From positions 26,318-90,317 of the forward strand of contig JAWXUX010000007.1 of NCBI GenBank assembly GCA_044426045.1: a DNA stretch of 64,000 bases, written 5' to 3'. A program made the translations under genes and the position numbers. Positions within the stretch are counted from its first letter, which is position 1, and each line of letters begins with the position of its first letter. Source of the stretch: Bacillota bacterium (GTDB lineage Bacteria > Bacillota > Clostridia > Christensenellales > CAMQZB01). Shown here piece after piece: positions 1,123 through 26,960 of the stretch. The notes under the pieces are model-generated. The model saw only the letters and a program-made list of their open reading frames with translations, searched no databases and was not told the origin of the DNA.

Positions 1123-1318
1123 AAGTGAAAAGTGAAAAGTGAAAAGTGAAAAGTTTGGTCTTGCACTCGCTCGCTCGTGCTTTCAATTTTAAGTTTTTAA
1201 CTAAAATACAATATCTCACATTCTAGCGTTTGGCTTATTGCCAACTTAAATTGGTTGCATGAGGCGAAGCCGAATGCCATACCACACTTTTCACTTTTCA
1301 CTTTTCACTTTTTACTTT
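1123..1318. repeat. heptad-armed long hairpin element, copy A
   Basis: Left arm (GTGAAAA)x4 plus GCACTCGCTCGCTCGTGC. Right arm GCATGAGGCGAAGCCGAATGC plus (TTTTCAC)x4, which is the complement. About 75-nt loop. Lies between kdgK and the YhcH-family gene. Confidence 0.8.
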
Positions 1319-16420: not shown

Positions 16421-16450
16421 TTTTCTCCTTTTGATAGATATAATAATTTT

Positions 16451-16610
16451 GGGTGCATCTGAAAAATATTAATGCAAAGATTAGTTTCAAAAATTGAGTG
16501 TATTTTTTGCAATGTTTCGAAAAAATACTGGTTGTATTTTGAGAAATCTTGCAGAAAATCAAGCCAATTTTGGGAATTAAGATTTGCGTTTATATTTTTT
16601 TGAGGTGCCC
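16451..16610 (-). repeat. MITE-like palindromic intergenic element, copy 1 (inverted relative to copy 2)
   Basis: Ends are GGGTGCATCTGAAAAA and TTTTTTTGAGGTGCCC. The reverse complement aligns along its length with 21646-21826. The tracked ORFs 16335..16562(-) and 21694..21957(+) share the MIFCKIS opening only because of this repeat. Confidence 0.75.
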
Positions 16611-16615
16611 TATCT

Positions 16616-17479
16616 TTATCCTTTAACGCCACCCATGTTAACACCTTTTGCAAAGTATTTTTGGATGAACGGATAAATCACTAGAATTGGGATGATTGAA
16701 CATATGATAATCGCATATGCCAAACTGTCCGCTGAATACGCAAGTACAACTGAAGATTCTTCATAAATCTTTTGATAGTTTTCAATCAATTGTCTTAGGT
16801 ATACTTGAAGGTTTTGGTCATAGGCATCAGCAAGCAACATTCTTGACCAGTAGTATCCATTCCATCTTGATACTGCGTAGAACAAAGTTACAGTTGCGAT
16901 TGACGCTTTTGACATTGGAACGTAGATTTTAGCAAACAATTGGAATTCGTTTGCACCATCAACGATTGCTGCTTCTTCCATTTCTTTCGGAATACTTGAG
17001 AAATAGTTACGAAGCAAGATAATGTTGTATGCTTGAATACCGAAGGCAAGAACGATTCCCCATCTGCCATTGACACCCATAGATGTGTAGTTGATGTAGA
17101 GTGGGATCATACCAGCTGTGAACCACATTGTGAACACAAGAAGGAAGTTGAACTGTCTTCTGAACATTAGCTTAGATTTTTGAAGTGCATATGCACCCAT
17201 AAGTGAAATTGCCATACTGTAAGCAGTACCAGACAATGTATAGAACAAAGTGTTTGCGTAAGTGATCCAGAACGCTTTATCCATAAGAACGATTTCATAC
17301 GCTTGGTATGTCACGTCAACTGGCCACAAGATAACTTGACCTGTTTCGTATGCTAGTTTACCTGAAATAGATACGCTGAATGCGTAGATAATTGGGTAAA
17401 GGGCACATAGCGAGAACAAAATAACAAGAGAGTATGCCAAAATTTTAAATATGATTTCTGATTTATTAAGTCTATTCAT
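16616..17479 (-). CDS. carbohydrate ABC transporter permease (LplC/YtcP-like)
   Basis: Six-TM MalG-type permease. ATG at 17479 with GAGGAG 9 nt upstream; the tracked start 17485 is TTG. Confidence 0.85.
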   Translation of the reverse strand: MNRLNKSEIIFKILAYSLVILFSLCALYPIIYAFSVSISGKLAYETGQVILWPVDVTYQAYEIVLMDKAFWITYANTLFYTLSGTAYSMAISLMGAYALQKSKLMFRRQFNFLLVFTMWFTAGMIPLYINYTSMGVNGRWGIVLAFGIQAYNIILLRNYFSSIPKEMEEAAIVDGANEFQLFAKIYVPMSKASIATVTLFYAVSRWNGYYWSRMLLADAYDQNLQVYLRQLIENYQKIYEESSVVLAYSADSLAYAIIICSIIPILVIYPFIQKYFAKGVNMGGVKG

Positions 17480-21594: not shown

Positions 21595-21645
21595 CAAATT
21601 TGAATACATGTTGATATATTCACATGCACAGTTGCAAATATTTAA

Positions 21646-21826
21646 GGGAACTTCTAAAAACTCTTAACGCAAATCTTAATTCCCAAAAAAGGCTTGATTT
21701 TCTGCAAAATTTCTCGTCGCGAGCGAAGCGACACGCCTGAATATACCCGATATTACTTCGAAATATTGCAAAAAATACGCACTTTTTTTGAAATTAATCT
21801 TTGGTCAATACTTTTTAGAAGTGCCC
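21646..21826 (+). repeat. MITE-like palindromic intergenic element, copy 2
   Basis: Terminal inverted repeats GGGAACTTCTAAAAA and TTTTTAGAAGTGCCC, flanked by TTAA on both sides. Abuts the putP stop. Carries an extra GC-rich insert CGTCGCGAGCGAAGCGACACGCC. Confidence 0.75.
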
Positions 21827-21830
21827 TTAA

Positions 21831-23330
21831 TTATTCAGCGATGAATTCAACAACTTTGTCAAATTCTTCTTGCATTTCAGCTTCTGGTTCTTTATCGAGA
21901 AGTGTCACAACGACAATCGCGATAAGAGAAACGACGAACGCTGGCAAAAGTTCATAAACCGAGAAAATTCCGCCGACAGTTGTTTTCAAGAAGTAGAACA
22001 CGATTGAACCAATACCACCAGAGCAAATACCCCAAACGGCAGCTTTTCTTGTCATGCGTTTCCAATAGATACTCATAACAACAGTTGGACCAAACGCGGC
22101 ACCAAGACCAGCCCACGCAAAGCTTACAATGCCAAATACTGAACTGTTTGGATCAAGTGCAAGCAAAACGGCAAGAAGTGCAACGACAACTACGCTTATT
22201 CTGCTCACCCAAACAACTTCTTTATCTGACGCGTCTTTTTTGATAAGACCTTTATAAAAGTCGGATGCGATAACTGAAGATGTAACCAAAAGTTGAGAAT
22301 CAGCTGTTGACATGATTGCCGCAAGAACTGCAGAAATCAATATACCCGCAATGATTGCAGGGAAGAATTCATAAATCAAAACAATGAAGATTGTTTCTTC
22401 GGCGCCTGAGGCGAGAAGTCCGCCAGTTGACGATAGATAAACTTTACCAAACATACCAACCAAAACTGCAAAGGCAAGAGAGATAACAACCCAAACCATA
22501 GCAATCACAGTTGCAGGCTTAACTTCTTTTGGCGATTTGATTGCCATGAATCTTGCAAGGATGTGTGGTTGACCGCAATAGCCAAGCCCCCAAGCAAGAG
22601 AGGAGAAGATAAGAAGCCATGTAACAGTTCCGCCACTTGGGAAGAAATTCCAAGCACCTTCTTCAAGCATTGCAAATGTCGCTTCCGCACCACCGAGGTT
22701 TGTCACCACGATAACAGGAACAACGATGATTGCAATAAACATCAAAATGCCTTGCATAACATCAGTGAAACAAACTGCCATGAATCCGCCAAGGAATGTG
22801 TAGGCAATGATGATAATCGAGCTTATGATTAGCGCTGTTGTGTATTCAACAGGGAAAATTTGCATGAATAATTTTGCACCTGCGGCAAACATTGAAGACG
22901 TGTAGACAACAAAGAAGAACACGATTGCAATACCAGTTGCAGTTCTGATGATTTTTGTTGTGTCTTTGAATCTGTTTTCAAAATAGTCAGGCAATGTCAA
23001 AGCGTTTCCTGAAATTTCAGTGTAGCCACGAAGTCTTTTTGCAACGAACATCCAGTTTAGAAGTGTTCCCACAGCAAGACCAATTGCTGTCCACCAAGCT
23101 TCAAGCGAGCCAGCAAGTGAAAGATAGGCAAGCCCAGGAAGCCCCATAAGAAGCCATCCGCTCATGTCTGACGCTTGCGCACTTAGCGCTGAAGTCCAAA
23201 CATTGAGTTTTCTGCCACCGAGAATATAGTCTTGCGCATTCTTATTTTTATTATAATAATATGCACCAATACCAATCATCAGTAAAAGATAAAGTATTAT
23301 GACCGTTAGAATTGTTGATTGTTCTGTCAT
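21831..23330 (-). CDS. putP: sodium:proline symporter (SSS family)
   Basis: DYILGGRKLNVWTSALSAQASDMSGWLLMGLPG is the typical PutP motif. Confidence 0.9.
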   Translation of the reverse strand: MTEQSTILTVIILYLLLMIGIGAYYYNKNKNAQDYILGGRKLNVWTSALSAQASDMSGWLLMGLPGLAYLSLAGSLEAWWTAIGLAVGTLLNWMFVAKRLRGYTEISGNALTLPDYFENRFKDTTKIIRTATGIAIVFFFVVYTSSMFAAGAKLFMQIFPVEYTTALIISSIIIIAYTFLGGFMAVCFTDVMQGILMFIAIIVVPVIVVTNLGGAEATFAMLEEGAWNFFPSGGTVTWLLIFSSLAWGLGYCGQPHILARFMAIKSPKEVKPATVIAMVWVVISLAFAVLVGMFGKVYLSSTGGLLASGAEETIFIVLIYEFFPAIIAGILISAVLAAIMSTADSQLLVTSSVIASDFYKGLIKKDASDKEVVWVSRISVVVVALLAVLLALDPNSSVFGIVSFAWAGLGAAFGPTVVMSIYWKRMTRKAAVWGICSGGIGSIVFYFLKTTVGGIFSVYELLPAFVVSLIAIVVVTLLDKEPEAEMQEEFDKVVEFIAE

Positions 23331-23405
23331 AGTTTTCCCTCCGTAATATTTTTTTAACCCTTATATTGTTTTTTGATTTTAATTTGGAAAATTAAAATCA
23401 AAAAA

Positions 23406-23549
23406 AGTGAATAGTGAATGGTGAATAGTGAATAGTGAAGGTAAGCACTCCGCTTCGCCTCGTGCATACTATATTAAAATAATGGAAAGCACGAGGCGTA
23501 GCCGAGTGCATTACCACCACTATTCACTATTACTTATTCTCTATTCACT
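23406..23549. repeat. heptad-armed long hairpin element, copy B
   Basis: Arms are (GTGAATA/GTGAATG)x5 plus GCACTCCGCTTCGCCTCGTGCA, against GCACGAGGCGTAGCCGAGTGCA plus complementary TATTCAC-type heptads. 22-nt AT-rich loop. Confidence 0.8.
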
Positions 23550-23611
23550 CATACTATACTTCATTAGTTTACACGAGTGAAGTACTGTTTGTCAAGCATT
23601 TAGCCTTGCGG

Positions 23612-24718
23612 TTAGGCATTTTGCCAAACCTTGTCGATCTCGCCACCGCCTAGCATGACACCTTCAAATTGTTCGCCCCATGTTTCGTCGCAATATAAAA
23701 CTGCGTATTGACCGCAAGTCACCGCCCTGTCGCCTGTTGGGAAGAAAACTTCCATACTGCCATCATCCGCGATTTTTGCAGTTGCGGGGATTGATTTTCC
23801 GCGATATCTGAATTTTGCAAGGCAAGAGAATTCTGAAACTTCTGGTTTTTTAGTGATGAAGTTGAATTTGTCGCATTTCGCTTTTCTTGAAACGAGTTCT
23901 TCGCCGTCGCCGTTTTGGACGTAGAGAATATTTTTTTCAAGGTCTTTTTTCAAAACGAACCATCTGCCGTTTTCATATCCCTTAACGCCACCGATATTAA
24001 GCCCGCGACGTTGACCGATTGTGTAGTACATAAGCCCGATGTGCTCGCCGATAACTTTGCCATCAAGTGTGCACATTTTGCCAGATTTGGCAGGCAAGTA
24101 GTTTTGAAGGAATTTTCTGAAATTTCTTTCGCCGATAAAGCAAATACCCGTTGAATCTTTCTTTTCCGCCGTTGCGAGGGATAGCTCGTCTGCAATCTTG
24201 CGAACTTCGGGTTTTTCGATATCCGCAAGCGGGAAAAGACAACTGCTCGCTTGTGCATATGATAATTGGTTCAAGAAATAACTTTGGTCTTTATTTTTGT
24301 CGCTTGCCATTTTCAAATAAACAAGCCCGTCGATTTCCGTTCTTGCGACGTAGTGACCCGTTGCAATCATGTCGCCACCGATTGATTTTGCAAACTTCAA
24401 GAATGGTCCGAACTTCACTTCGCGATTGCAAAGCACGTCGGGATTAGGAGTTTTGCCCGCCTTGTAGCTTTCGAGAAAATACGTGAACACGTTTTCATAA
24501 TATTCCTTTGCGTAGTTCACACTGTAAAACGGAATGCCAATGGAATTTGCCACTGACTTTGCATCTTCATAATCAACATCAGATGTACATCTGCCGTTTT
24601 CGTCTTGCTCCTCCCAGTTTTTCATGAAAACACCAATCACTTCATGCCCTTGGTCAAGCAATATTTTTGCGGCAACCGAGCTGTCCACCCCGCCGCTTAA
24701 TCCTAGAATCACTCTCAT
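23612..24718 (-). CDS. mnmA: tRNA 2-thiouridine(34) synthase
   Basis: MRVILGLSGGVDSSVAA PP-loop and a full-length MnmA-like sequence. Confidence 0.95.
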   Translation of the reverse strand: MRVILGLSGGVDSSVAAKILLDQGHEVIGVFMKNWEEQDENGRCTSDVDYEDAKSVANSIGIPFYSVNYAKEYYENVFTYFLESYKAGKTPNPDVLCNREVKFGPFLKFAKSIGGDMIATGHYVARTEIDGLVYLKMASDKNKDQSYFLNQLSYAQASSCLFPLADIEKPEVRKIADELSLATAEKKDSTGICFIGERNFRKFLQNYLPAKSGKMCTLDGKVIGEHIGLMYYTIGQRRGLNIGGVKGYENGRWFVLKKDLEKNILYVQNGDGEELVSRKAKCDKFNFITKKPEVSEFSCLAKFRYRGKSIPATAKIADDGSMEVFFPTGDRAVTCGQYAVLYCDETWGEQFEGVMLGGGEIDKVWQNA

Positions 24719-24809
24719 GTTATAGTCCTTTTTTTATATTGTTTTTGTTGAATTTTTTTATGTTATTTTTTATGTTATTTTTTATATTATATATAGTAAG
24801 CACAAAATG

Positions 24810-25595
24810 CTAGTTATTGCCCCATTCAAAATCGTCAGAATTGATTGTTATCACCTCAGGTTCTTCGCTTTCATCTTGGGAAACGCTAGCTGTGTTTTTT
24901 GATTTGCCCGAGAAAATCTTTTTGGCTTTATCCGCAATAGTTCGCGTTGCAACTGTATCAACTGCGCCAACACCGCTTTTGAAAGCAGCGGTAACACCCG
25001 CCGTGATTTTTTCCGCGCTGTTTTTCATTTTGTTTTTGAGTGAAGCGTTCTTTTTTGCTTCAAGTTCGGCAAGCCTTATTTCCTCAAGGCGTTTTGCAAG
25101 GCGTTTTTCATATATATCCGAAACGATTATCCAAAGATTACCCGCAGAAAACGCAATCAGCATTATGCAAGAAAAAAGTTGGTACTGAATGCCTTCGCCC
25201 CACGTGCCAAAAAGCACAACGATTGTCACAATGTAAGTCACAATCCCCAAAATTCTGCGCAGAATTTTGCACATCTTCGCCATTTTTCCAAGCTCATCTA
25301 GCTTGCTTTTGCCATTTTCAAGCGTCCCCAGCATTGACCAAATGGAAAGCACCGCCATGACAATGAACATCAAATAAAAAATCGCACCGAAAATTATCAT
25401 CACCACATCGCTGATTTTGCCAAGATTGTTAAGGCAAATCACGCCATAAGACACGAAAATCAACATTGACACAAGATAAAAAGCAGTCAAATACACCCGA
25501 AATTTCCTAGACAAAAAATCCGTGCTAGTATCAACCACGTTTTCCACCTTTTTATCCATCCACCTATCAAAAAATGATTTATTACTTCCAGACAT
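24810..25595 (-). CDS. membrane protein with a charged/disordered C-terminal tail, unknown function
   Basis: Four TM helices followed by a Lys/Glu-rich coiled region. Confidence 0.6.
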   Translation of the reverse strand: MSGSNKSFFDRWMDKKVENVVDTSTDFLSRKFRVYLTAFYLVSMLIFVSYGVICLNNLGKISDVVMIIFGAIFYLMFIVMAVLSIWSMLGTLENGKSKLDELGKMAKMCKILRRILGIVTYIVTIVVLFGTWGEGIQYQLFSCIMLIAFSAGNLWIIVSDIYEKRLAKRLEEIRLAELEAKKNASLKNKMKNSAEKITAGVTAAFKSGVGAVDTVATRTIADKAKKIFSGKSKNTASVSQDESEEPEVITINSDDFEWGNN

Positions 25596-25718
25596 ATCAC
25601 ACCACCGTTTTTTCTATCTTCGTTTTTTACTATCTTATATGATAACATATTGGGGGAGAGATTGTCAAATGGCACGCAGTTAGGGTTTTGGGGAGCAGAG
25701 TTTTTGGGACGCTGTTTT

Positions 25719-25925
25719 AAGGTGAAAGGTGAAAGGTGAAAGGTGAAAGGTGTGGTAGGCACTCGCTTCGCTCGTGCACCCCATTTGGATTTGGACAGCA
25801 AAATAGGAACGTTCCTATTTAATAGTTACGTTCCTACAAGTGGTTACAAATATAATTGAAAAGCACAAGGCGAAGCCGCGTGCATTACCACACCTTTCAC
25901 CTTTCACCTTTCACCTTTCACCTTA
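25719..25925. repeat. heptad-armed long hairpin element, copy C
   Basis: TTAA-(GGTGAAA)x4-GGTGTGGTAGGCACTCGCTTCGCTCGTGCA ... GCACAAGGCGAAGCCGCGTGCATTACCACACC-(TTTCACC)x4-TTAA. About 80-nt loop containing the palindrome AATAGGAACGTTCCTATT (25802-25819). Confidence 0.85.
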
Positions 25926-25940
25926 AGCGAAGCGTTTCAC

Positions 25941-26960
25941 CTACTTAAGTCCCATCTCCAAAAGTTTTCCCTCAAACTCCCCATAGGCAGCACAGATATC
26001 ATCTTCGATTTGCTCTTTCACTTCGTCATATGGGAAATCGATTTTTTCCCACCATTCCACAAGGTTTTTCATGCCTTGTTCTAGGGTTATTTGTGGGTTA
26101 TATTCCGGCACGGCTTTTTGGATTTTTTCGTTTGAGAACACCGCGCAATACACTTTTTCATAGTTCAAGTGCGTGCACACTGTTGGCCAAATTTTGCGGA
26201 GAAGTGCTGATGGAACATATATGAATTTCGGTTCTTTTCCGACAGCTTTGCCAATCGCGCGATACAAATCTTCCCACACAACAACTTCGGTGTTAGTGAT
26301 ATGATAAAAATCGTTGTATGTTTTTTCGTTGCCACAGCAAAGCACGTATCCTTTCGCAAGATCTGGCGAGAAAGTGAACGACCATGGGATAACACCTTCG
26401 CCAATCATCACAACAGGTTTGCCTTCCTTTATTCTTCTTGCGATGTTGCGATTTTGACGGAACGTGCCAACGGTTTGCGAGCCTTCGCCAAAAGTTAGGC
26501 ACGGTCTTATGATTGTGATTCCCGCACTGTGTTTGCCCATTTCCCCTTGCAAATATCTATCCATTTCCGCCTTGTTGAAGCCATAGGCAAAAGAATCGTC
26601 GAAAGTGAGCGCTTCTTTATCTTCTGAAACTGGAAGGCTTTTATATGGTCTTTGATATGCCGAACTGCTTGAAGTCACGATGATTTGTTTGCACCTTTCG
26701 CCAAACAAACCAAGCATTTGTTTTGCATCTTCCACGTTGAACATGATCATATCAATAACAACGTCAACTTCAACAGCTTTCATTTTGCTTTCAAAATCGG
26801 CGGTGTCCTTTCTGTCCCCCAAAATCACATTCACGCCGTTTGGCATTGCCACATCACGCATACCACGATTGAAAACAGTGACATCGTGCCCCGCTTCCAC
26901 CGCTTGTTTCACAATTTGCGAACTGATAACGCCAGTTCCGCCTAAAATCAAAATCTTCAT
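25941..26960 (-). CDS. NAD-dependent epimerase/dehydratase family protein
   Basis: MKILILGGTGVISSQIV Rossmann motif; AAGGAG RBS. Confidence 0.85.
   Translation of the reverse strand: MKILILGGTGVISSQIVKQAVEAGHDVTVFNRGMRDVAMPNGVNVILGDRKDTADFESKMKAVEVDVVIDMIMFNVEDAKQMLGLFGERCKQIIVTSSSSAYQRPYKSLPVSEDKEALTFDDSFAYGFNKAEMDRYLQGEMGKHSAGITIIRPCLTFGEGSQTVGTFRQNRNIARRIKEGKPVVMIGEGVIPWSFTFSPDLAKGYVLCCGNEKTYNDFYHITNTEVVVWEDLYRAIGKAVGKEPKFIYVPSALLRKIWPTVCTHLNYEKVYCAVFSNEKIQKAVPEYNPQITLEQGMKNLVEWWEKIDFPYDEVKEQIEDDICAAYGEFEGKLLEMGLK

Follow-up and report, generated by a model that had tools for sequence, protein, structure and literature searches.

We describe three intergenic hairpins (copies A, B and C) with arms built of tandem heptads, located in a 64,000-nucleotide stretch of a Bacillota bacterium genome (Clostridia, Christensenellales; contig JAWXUX010000007.1 of assembly GCA_044426045.1, positions 26,318 to 90,317; hereafter the window). 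The three hairpins are confirmed as real, non-random and not part of a named family. With a probability that we put at roughly 0.45, they are members devoid of open reading frame (ORF), and probably non-autonomous, of a widespread but barely described class of heptad-armed palindromic cassettes that, in their full form, bracket a gene of the TIGR02436/PF05635 family. The main interest beyond the three copies thus lies in a cross-phylum heptad hairpin cassette whose cargo is a gene family already known but still uncharacterised. Intergenic heptamer repeats (e.g., STRR and TAACTGA) and genes for four-helix-bundle or intervening-sequence proteins are both common and both unexplained, and here they appear as two parts of one structure. 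If the bracketing holds in a systematic survey, both puzzles would come down to one concrete object, a hairpin cassette tolerated in operons, defence loci and even rRNA as the transcript loops it out. The cassette class, if true, would also account for the origin of ORF-less heptad hairpins such as copies A, B and C.

A first-pass annotation of the window had described these elements as a repeated, structured, intergenic palindrome of no named family, and this description holds: the search of the window against Rfam gave 0 matches at the gathering threshold (sub-threshold matches were to generic miRNA-precursor hairpin models only), and the sequence of the GC-rich inner box was not found in the searchable literature. 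What had gone unseen is that the elements belong to a wider class of heptad-armed hairpins, some members of which carry a PF05635 gene, and that the box has the form of a mini-hairpin with a GNA triloop and recurs in unrelated hairpins of the window and of viral contigs.

Architecture of the Three Hairpins

The shared architecture reported for the three elements was recovered both as inverted repeats and as period-7 arrays at the positions originally given (Table 1). Read on either strand, all copies follow a common plan: four to five GTGAAnn heptads, a junction, a GC-rich box of 18–21 nt, a centre, the inverted box, the sequence (C/A)(A/T)TACC-ACAC and the complementary heptads. Arrays of 4.6–5.0 units lie on both sides of every copy (Tandem Repeats Finder), and the centres (23–85 nt) are mutually dissimilar and hold no ORF. 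The heptad is GTGAAAA in copy A, GTGAATA in copy B and GTGAAAG in copy C, with the opposite arm being its complement each time. The junctions (GTGTGGTAAT, GTGTGGTAG, GTGAAGGTAA and GTTTGGTCTT) end in GGTA(A/G)(T/G) and stay in the heptad register (GTGTGGT, GTTTGGT, GTGAAGG). The 10-nt direct repeat GTTTGGTCTT (1105–1114 and 1153–1162, 38 nt apart) brackets the left arm of copy A and may be the footprint of arm copying or of insertion, and the right arm of copy B (+ strand) appears decayed.

The box forms a small hairpin on each strand, one of which reads GCAC-GA-G(G)C-GAA-G(C)C-GA-GTGC, in which a C-G pair closes a GNA triloop and tandem G.A lies on either side; the triloop of copy B is GTA, which is still GNA. 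Left and right boxes measure 18 and 21 nt in copy A, 21 and 21 nt in copy B, and 19 and 21 nt in copy C, so that the two extra bases said to recur in every right box are present in copy C but not, in that form, in copy A or in copy B, where the extra base lies in the junction. The DNA sequence d(GCGNAGC) is an extraordinarily stable mini-hairpin (Hirao), and the core of the box, G(G)C-GAA/GTA-G(C)C, resembles it in its GNA triloop, its closing C-G pair and its tandem G.A flanks, even though d(GCGNAGC) is a physical motif and no genetic element. The nearest-neighbour model predicts the hairpin shape of the box at just −2.6 to −4.4 kcal/mol, a low value because the model has no special terms for the GNA-triloop motif; folded alone as DNA under the nearest-neighbour model, the box does no better than shuffles. 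Hammerhead-like and kink-turn motifs were also considered for the box and dropped on reading the sequence, in which the required flanking core sequences are absent.

Table 1. Positions in the window of the three hairpins, of their parts and of a box-like insertion.
Feature	Position	Strand	Description
Copy A, whole hairpin	1118–1329	−	between kdgK stop (1364–1366) and DUF386 gene start (~1056)
Copy A, inverted repeat	1123–1169 / 1271–1317		47-nt arms, 89% complementary
Copy A, left heptad arm	1125–1152		GTGAAAA x4
Copy A, left junction	1153–1162		GTTTGGTCTT
Copy A, left box	1163–1180		GCACTCGCTCGCTCGTGC, 18 nt
Copy A, right box	1257–1277		GCATGAGGCGAAGCCGAATGC, 21 nt, mini-hairpin GCAT-GA-GGC-GAA-GCC-GA-ATGC
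Copy A, right junction and arm	1278–1315		CATACCACAC, then TTTTCAC x4
Copy B, whole hairpin	23403–23552	−	between mnmA stop (23612–23614) and SSF transporter start (23330)
Copy B, inverted repeat	23406–23444 / 23511–23549		39-nt arms, 82% complementary
Copy B, inner box arms	23445–23472 / 23482–23509
Copy B, left box	23445–23465		GCACTCCGCTTCGCCTCGTGC
Copy B, right box	23489–23509		GCACGAGGCGTAGCCGAGTGC, GTA triloop replacing GAA
Copy C, whole hairpin	25715–25928	−	between epimerase stop (25941–25943) and 261-aa gene (start 25595)
Copy C, inverted repeat	25717–25757 / 25886–25926		41-nt arms, 100% complementary
Copy C, left box	25759–25777		GCACTCGCTTCGCTCGTGC, reverse complement GCACGAGCGAAGCGAGTGC
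Copy C, right box	25863–25883		GCACAAGGCGAAGCCGCGTGC
Box-like 24-nt insertion	21716–21739	+	GTCGCGAGCGAAGCGACACGCCTG, exact centre of the 21637–21835 copy of the second repeat family; lacking in the other two copies

Folding and Pairing

Each copy folds as one long hairpin, with the RNA of the gene-sense (−) strand reaching −85 kcal/mol for copy A, −81.4 for copy B and −125.7 for copy C (z-scores of −12.2, −13.1 and −16.3, respectively; 0/200 shuffles as stable). The two strands of each copy are about equal in folding energy and similar in G.U counts, and therefore reveal no preference as to which strand acts. The box GCACTCGCTTCGCTCGTGC has 0.00 occurrences expected in shuffles, and the 15-mer CGAGGCGAAGCCGAG, when up to three mismatches are allowed, matches four times (0.32 expected), always inside the elements.

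The three copies together comprise 28 heptad pairs; 96.4% of their cells are paired, and eight of the pairs show two-sided changes (8/28, whereas shuffles give 2.9 ± 1.4, 0/500, and slid controls give 0), in line with the original observation that the heptad differs between copies while the opposite arm matches. Within a copy the units are uniform, as had also been noticed, and since the eight two-sided changes are two heptad positions repeated four times by this homogenisation, they amount to about two independent events. The further claim that pairing, rather than sequence, is conserved is only half sustained: the arms do co-vary, but copying of one arm off the other explains this equally well.

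Relatives in Campylobacterota Metagenomes

A scan of JGI metagenomes with the pattern GTGC-N2-3-ACC-N6-7-(TTCACNN)x3 returned 36 stretches. About 14 of them, mostly GC-rich, contain plain TTCAC-type heptad arrays (L053, L055 and L061 among these are short heptad-armed hairpins), and complementary GTGAAnn arrays lie upstream in L049, L053, L055, L058 and L061. In about 22 of the 36, the GTGC of the pattern is the 3′ half of a 15–17-nt hairpin, GCAC-NNN-loop-NNN-GTGC, a feature that falls outside the pattern; an A-run precedes this right hairpin, and A(T/A)ACC-nACAC and heptads follow it. On the left side, heptads are followed in this group by (T)TTTGGTATGC and by another hairpin, GCTTTTC...GAAAAGC. 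Across 15 distinct sequences, the GCAC...GTGC hairpin is 98.1% paired, with one pair appearing as GC, UA, AU and CG, and where just one side has changed, G.U is kept on the gene-sense strand.

The host contigs are Campylobacterota (IspG 85–94% identical to proteins named Sulfurovum, Nitratifractor and hydrothermal vent metagenome) and share the plan described above, which therefore recurs in another phylum. Besides the GCAC...GTGC subterminal hairpin, the window copies and these relatives have the junction in common: GGTAAT/GGTAGG/GGTAA and ATTACC/CATACC in the window match the GGTA(T)/(A)TACC joins of the subgroup, a match partly imposed by the search pattern.

Two of the metagenome loci show the full form. 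In L058 and L086 (Nitratifractor sp.), the priA|ispG spacer contains heptads, a TTTTGGTATGC hairpin, an ORF of 116 aa, a GC hairpin, (A)AACC and the complementary heptads. Profile matches of the L058 ORF are to “four helix bundle protein” (TIGR02436, E 1.6e-29), to “23S rRNA-intervening sequence protein” (PF05635, E 5.9e-26) and, weakly, to the diversity-generating retroelement protein Avd; the ORF of L086 has a precomputed PF05635 match. L045 carries a truncated copy of this ORF at the same locus; in L049, which has no ORF, the two arrays are separated by 83 nt. The arms have changed on both sides at the orthologous locus, with (A)GTGAAT / ATTCAC(T) in L058 versus (G)GTGAAT / ATTCAC(C) in L086, and a second two-sided change opposes ATGAAGA / TCTTCAC (L042/L059) to ATGAATA / TATTCAC (L057).

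Two further observations concern the surroundings of these elements. A short hairpin located ~5–25 nt past the right heptad arm sequesters the Shine–Dalgarno sequence and/or the start codon of the downstream gene, such as ispG or tsaD (L034, L045, L047, L048, L058, L062, L063, L065, L066 and L086), and two contigs, of 43% and 59% GC, both have an occupied hydrolase|tsaD locus. In L033, L035, L041, L043, L062 and L067 (50–60% GC), arrays of GGTTATT, TCGCAAG and TATTCAC and a GGCGCC-TAC-GGCGCC hairpin are strung in one spacer, with no complementarity between the left arrays and the right ones.

Heptad Arrays around Four-Helix-Bundle Genes

When the L058 protein was compared to annotated plasmids (tblastn), 31 records were obtained, from which 12 loci, picked for their taxonomic spread, were inspected. 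In all of them (12/12), the gene is preceded by tandem heptads and followed by their complement, the heptad being specific to the locus and the arrays often abutting start and stop codons. Altogether, heptad bracketing of a four-helix-bundle gene was found in bacteria of at least six phyla. The heptad is AATTAGG in Monoglobus pectinilyticus (Bacillota), where a pseudogene lies between hsdS and hsdR, CCAGTGA in Euhalothece, TTAGTGA (17 units) in Bernardetia, AATTCAA in both Nostoc flagelliforme and Aulosira, AATTCGC in Nostoc punctiforme, TTTTAGA in Gloeocapsa and of the GTTAACA type in Chondrinema; Chlorohelix has two loci (GATGAAG and GGATTTT), Planktothrix has AATCGTA and AATCCCC, and in Pseudanabaena the gene adjoins cas1. 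A further case, reached through the heptads alone, is the Treponema saccharophilum plasmid pTS1 (L002), where, in the part of the locus that was covered, a four-helix-bundle gene adjoins a long heptad array. This array (230–570) extends over ~340 nt of CTTTCAC/CTTTCCA/CTTTCAT heptads and is preceded by a partly complementary array of CGGAGAG/CGGAAAA.

The TIGR02436 genes (L069–L074 and L077–L082) sit inside operons, often devoted to defence (type I restriction-modification genes, DUF1156/HEPN, cas1), but also among RND pump genes. The spacers concerned are hsdS|hsdR, helicase|N6-methylase, the one upstream of cas1 and those between RND pump genes, and DUF1156|Swt1-HEPN is occupied in both Gloeocapsa and Chlorohelix. 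In the literature, to which our search was confined (database comments lay outside it), no description linking the PF05635 gene family to heptad hairpins was found.

Proposed Origin and Possible Functions

In the interpretation that we favour, cassettes would have inserted or spread into spacers between co-directional genes, thereby giving copies A, B and C. The complementarity of the arms would stem mainly from quasi-palindrome template switching, in which one arm is copied from its partner, and from homogenisation by 7-nt slippage, and independent compensatory substitutions would be unneeded. Intervening sequences in rRNA are processed by RNase III. By analogy, a transcript of copies A, B or C would present a near-perfect stem of ~45–60 bp as an RNase III substrate, and this would create a processing site, a transcript end or a protective 3′ stem. 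Copies A and B, which have a U-tract, may in addition terminate transcription. We propose that arm pairing in the transcript, by which the insert is looped out and cut, makes the cassettes tolerable between genes and even within 23S rRNA. The mini-hairpin of the box (GCAC-GA-G(G)C-GNA-G(C)C-GA-GTGC) may nucleate folding or be recognised by a protein. Avd is a pentamer, and the period of seven possibly matches an oligomeric binding protein, with four to five units per arm facing an Avd-like pentamer.

A broader version of this proposal is doubtful in our eyes: the heptad-armed hairpins would form an undescribed, phylum-spanning cassette system with Avd-like, possibly pentameric, genes inside, the arms would be rebuilt at each locus by copying, the ORF-less miniatures would be non-autonomous offspring, and the GNA-triloop box (~19–24 nt) would be a separate module placed at hairpin apexes in bacteria, phages and giant-virus bins.

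Compared with known PF05635/TIGR02436 cassettes, including the 23S rRNA intervening sequences, the window copies share the long inverted-repeat stem around the cassette, the arms of complementary heptads and the insertion between co-directional genes. They differ in that they are devoid of ORF, lie in mRNA spacers instead of rRNA and have inner hairpins that are mutually complementary.

Several points weigh against assigning the three copies to this class. The link between them and the cassettes rests on a shared architecture that is in part imposed by the search pattern; since the GTGC...ACC...TTCAC likeness follows from that pattern, only the features outside it constitute independent evidence. 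Moreover, in one metagenome group the left GGTTATT heptads are not complementary to the right ones, and the long hairpin is therefore not universal. Neither the window nor the 8.6 kb next to it yielded a PF05635/TIGR02436 four-helix-bundle gene in a profile search of the six-frame translation, and just three copies are known from the 72.6 kb of the source genome thus covered. Likewise, a scan of 185,579 species (one genome each) with the right box and junction (AGGCGNAGCCGNNTGCNNTACCAC) gave no further match, the source genome evidently being outside this collection; its sole match, in a coding region of a GC-rich Gammaproteobacteria metagenome-assembled genome (MAG), was set aside as due to chance. 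The copies show neither presence/absence polymorphism among three strains nor a common flanking target-site duplication (the TTAA at both ends of copy C is part of the palindrome); as no copy is absent from any of these strains, mobility is unsupported, as is, on the same two grounds, the earlier suggestion of a MITE-like element (miniature inverted-repeat transposable element). Finally, the putative cleavage by RNase III is borrowed from the rRNA intervening sequences.

Alternative Explanations

The hairpins could instead be intrinsic terminators or 3′-end stabilisers, selected by the host and evolved in place so as to end or protect the transcripts of kdgK, mnmA and the epimerase gene, with no relation to cassettes or mobile elements. 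All three copies do lie 13–60 nt past a stop codon on the coding strand, just after the genes named in the first-pass annotation, and are conserved in three strains. The T-runs that it had reported on the − strand are present 3′ of copies A (TTATTTTTT) and B (TTTTTTTGATTTT), and a strong promoter-like site (25668–25639, − strand; TTGACA-18-TATCAT, extended TG, 11/12) stands just downstream of copy C, between it and the next gene. However, copy C has no U-tract, nor do the related elements found elsewhere, the loops are long (23–85 nt) and the stems AT-rich apart from the box, and a consensus terminator scan calls none of the three copies. The terminator role first assigned to the family thus stands, at most, for copies A and B, and since this explanation accounts neither for the shared GC box, junction and heptad build nor for the same plan around a gene in other phyla, we consider it unlikely. 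The case for independent small-RNA genes, or for an assembly artefact at inverted repeats, is slighter by far: the structure is stable and Logan contigs break inside the elements, but the same sequences occur in two MAGs and in the Logan assemblies of two runs (SRR26557936 and SRR26557943), and no promoter or Rfam match was found. Contigs ending inside the copies are expected for inverted repeats, and such elements do break short-read assemblies.

Other explanations start from the parts of the hairpins. The boxes could be palindromes of the repetitive extragenic palindromic (REP) type, with a GTAG-like guide, arranged as a doublet similar to a REPIN or to a bacterial interspersed mosaic element (BIME) and copied as single-stranded DNA by a RAYT transposase (Y1 HUH) encoded elsewhere in the genome, the heptads being accessory. 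Such doublets are likewise extragenic and made of ~20-nt GC-rich imperfect palindromes forming a larger hairpin; the window boxes are inverted 18–21-nt imperfect palindromes, GC-rich in a genome of 37% GC, and the combination of a GNA triloop with tandem G.A is typical of single-stranded DNA hairpins. As in REPs (PMC6006769), a GTAG-like motif is found 5′ of the hairpin, the flank being GGTA(A/G/T), and in copy C the left arm has GTAG immediately at the foot. Yet the published rule specifies GT[AG]G 0–2 nt 5′ of the hairpin foot and a basal stem of 7–20 bp (PMC6006769), whereas the canonical guide occurs in 1/6 arms of the window copies (the others have GTAA-(T), GTAT-G or GTCT-T) and their basal stem counts 4 bp. 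Furthermore, heptad arms have no counterpart in REPs, and the related Campylobacterota elements carry two different subterminal hairpins and no doublet, which leaves this origin decidedly improbable.

If, instead, the heptads were the functional part, they would be arrays bound by an oligomeric protein with affinity for single-stranded nucleic acids (a pentameric four-helix-bundle or Avd-like protein, or one of the cold-shock or S1 type), which would compete with the stem and control the neighbouring gene. Most elements have four to five units per arm, the GTGAA core is kept across the three copies, and a hairpin sequestering the ribosome-binding site or start codon follows the right arm in the Campylobacterota relatives. 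Binding by a post-transcriptional regulator has been proposed for intergenic TAACTGA heptamers, and CspB binds heptamers (MacGregor 2015, PMC4679880). Intergenic TAACTGA direct repeats, whose function is unknown, were reported there from Beggiatoaceae, Cyanobacteria and Bacteroidetes, together with one inverted set. These and the cyanobacterial STRR are, like the window elements, period-7 arrays (2 to at least 40 units) lying in spacers near start and stop codons with a patchy distribution, but they are described as direct-repeat arrays (PMC4679880), whereas the arrays of the window are paired with their complement and enclose box hairpins. Against such a binder, the heptads differ completely between loci, so that no single protein fits, the window copies have no adjoining hairpin of the sequestering kind and no candidate protein was identified; we therefore see little chance of it. 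As to MITEs and the Correia, RUP, BOX and ERIC elements, they resemble the window copies in being non-coding, intergenic and hairpin-forming, with a length of 150–210 bp and terminal inverted repeats, but tandem-repeat arms are unusual among them, and the window copies show no target-site duplication, related insertion sequence or polymorphic insertion.

The Box as a Putative Portable Module

The 19-mer GCACGAGCGAAGCGAGTGC occurs exactly in 21 stretches of viral contigs (IMG/VR, L012–L032) from about eight unrelated lineages of 20–67% GC, including giant-virus bins and contigs of 5–6 kb; roughly estimated, fewer than two occurrences would be expected by chance. Most of these sites lie in the apical region of another hairpin or adjoin further GNA-triloop hairpins, and Rfam found nothing at them. 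In blastn searches with copy C, phages returned nothing and plasmids matched through the heptads alone (Sulfuricystis, Pseudomonas silvicola, Treponema), without the box.

The window also contains a second, MITE-like repeat family of ~170–190 bp, with copies at 16445–16625 (−) and 21637–21835 (+) and terminal inverted repeats TAAGGGAACTTC...GAAGTGCCCTTA. Between eda and kdgK, MAG1 (GCA_044426065.1; L005, 9715–9900) carries a third copy, which is absent from the corresponding place in the window (~2473–2504); the family is therefore polymorphic between strains and probably mobile. The box-like insertion carried by one of its copies (Table 1) has a core, CGAGCGAAGCGAC, that agrees with the core of the heptad-element box at 12/13 positions. 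The box thus behaves as a portable apex hairpin.

Variation between Strains

The strains compared were that of the window, MAG1 and a second MAG (MAG2). Copy A has no differences between the window strain and MAG1. The arms of copy C are invariant between strains, its 11 differences all falling either in the centre (3′ half) or in one of the boxes, where the triloop GAA is replaced by AAC and the GC stem is kept. In copy B, the differences are confined to one arm (window 23521–23548 versus L007 and L008), the other arm being identical; the GTG of several heptads is altered, in a way that differs from strain to strain (GAG, AGT versus GAT, GGG, GGG), which lowers pairing. Illumina sequencing is prone to sequence-specific errors at inverted repeats, and the changes may reflect either real decay or an error of this kind. 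Regarding empty sites, the relative with the nearest MnmA (L011, 77%) has neither synteny nor the element, and the IspG relatives L083–L085 were rejected as such sites, their upstream gene being different.

Genomic Setting

With a GC content of 37%, the window is 97–99.4% identical to contig JAWXUW010000003.1 of MAG1, and a Logan contig of run SRR26557943 is identical to it over positions 23502–25737. The closest other MnmA is just 77% identical, which indicates sparse sampling of the lineage. Nearly all genes around the three copies are on the − strand, all copies lie in spacers between co-directional genes, and the last gene at the right end of the window is incomplete.

Two other small structures adjoin the hairpins. 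Immediately beyond the right arm of copy C, and overlapping the epimerase stop codon, AAGCGAAGCGTTTCACC (25925–25941) combines a GCGAAGC mini-hairpin with a heptad-like unit and may be the remnant of an older element end. Next to copy B, 23369–23405 is a perfect 17-nt AT-rich inverted repeat with a 3-nt loop, which on the gene-sense strand reads TCC in MAG1 and in the window (GGA on the + strand of the latter) versus GGA in MAG2, a difference due either to loop inversion between strains or to an assembly artefact.

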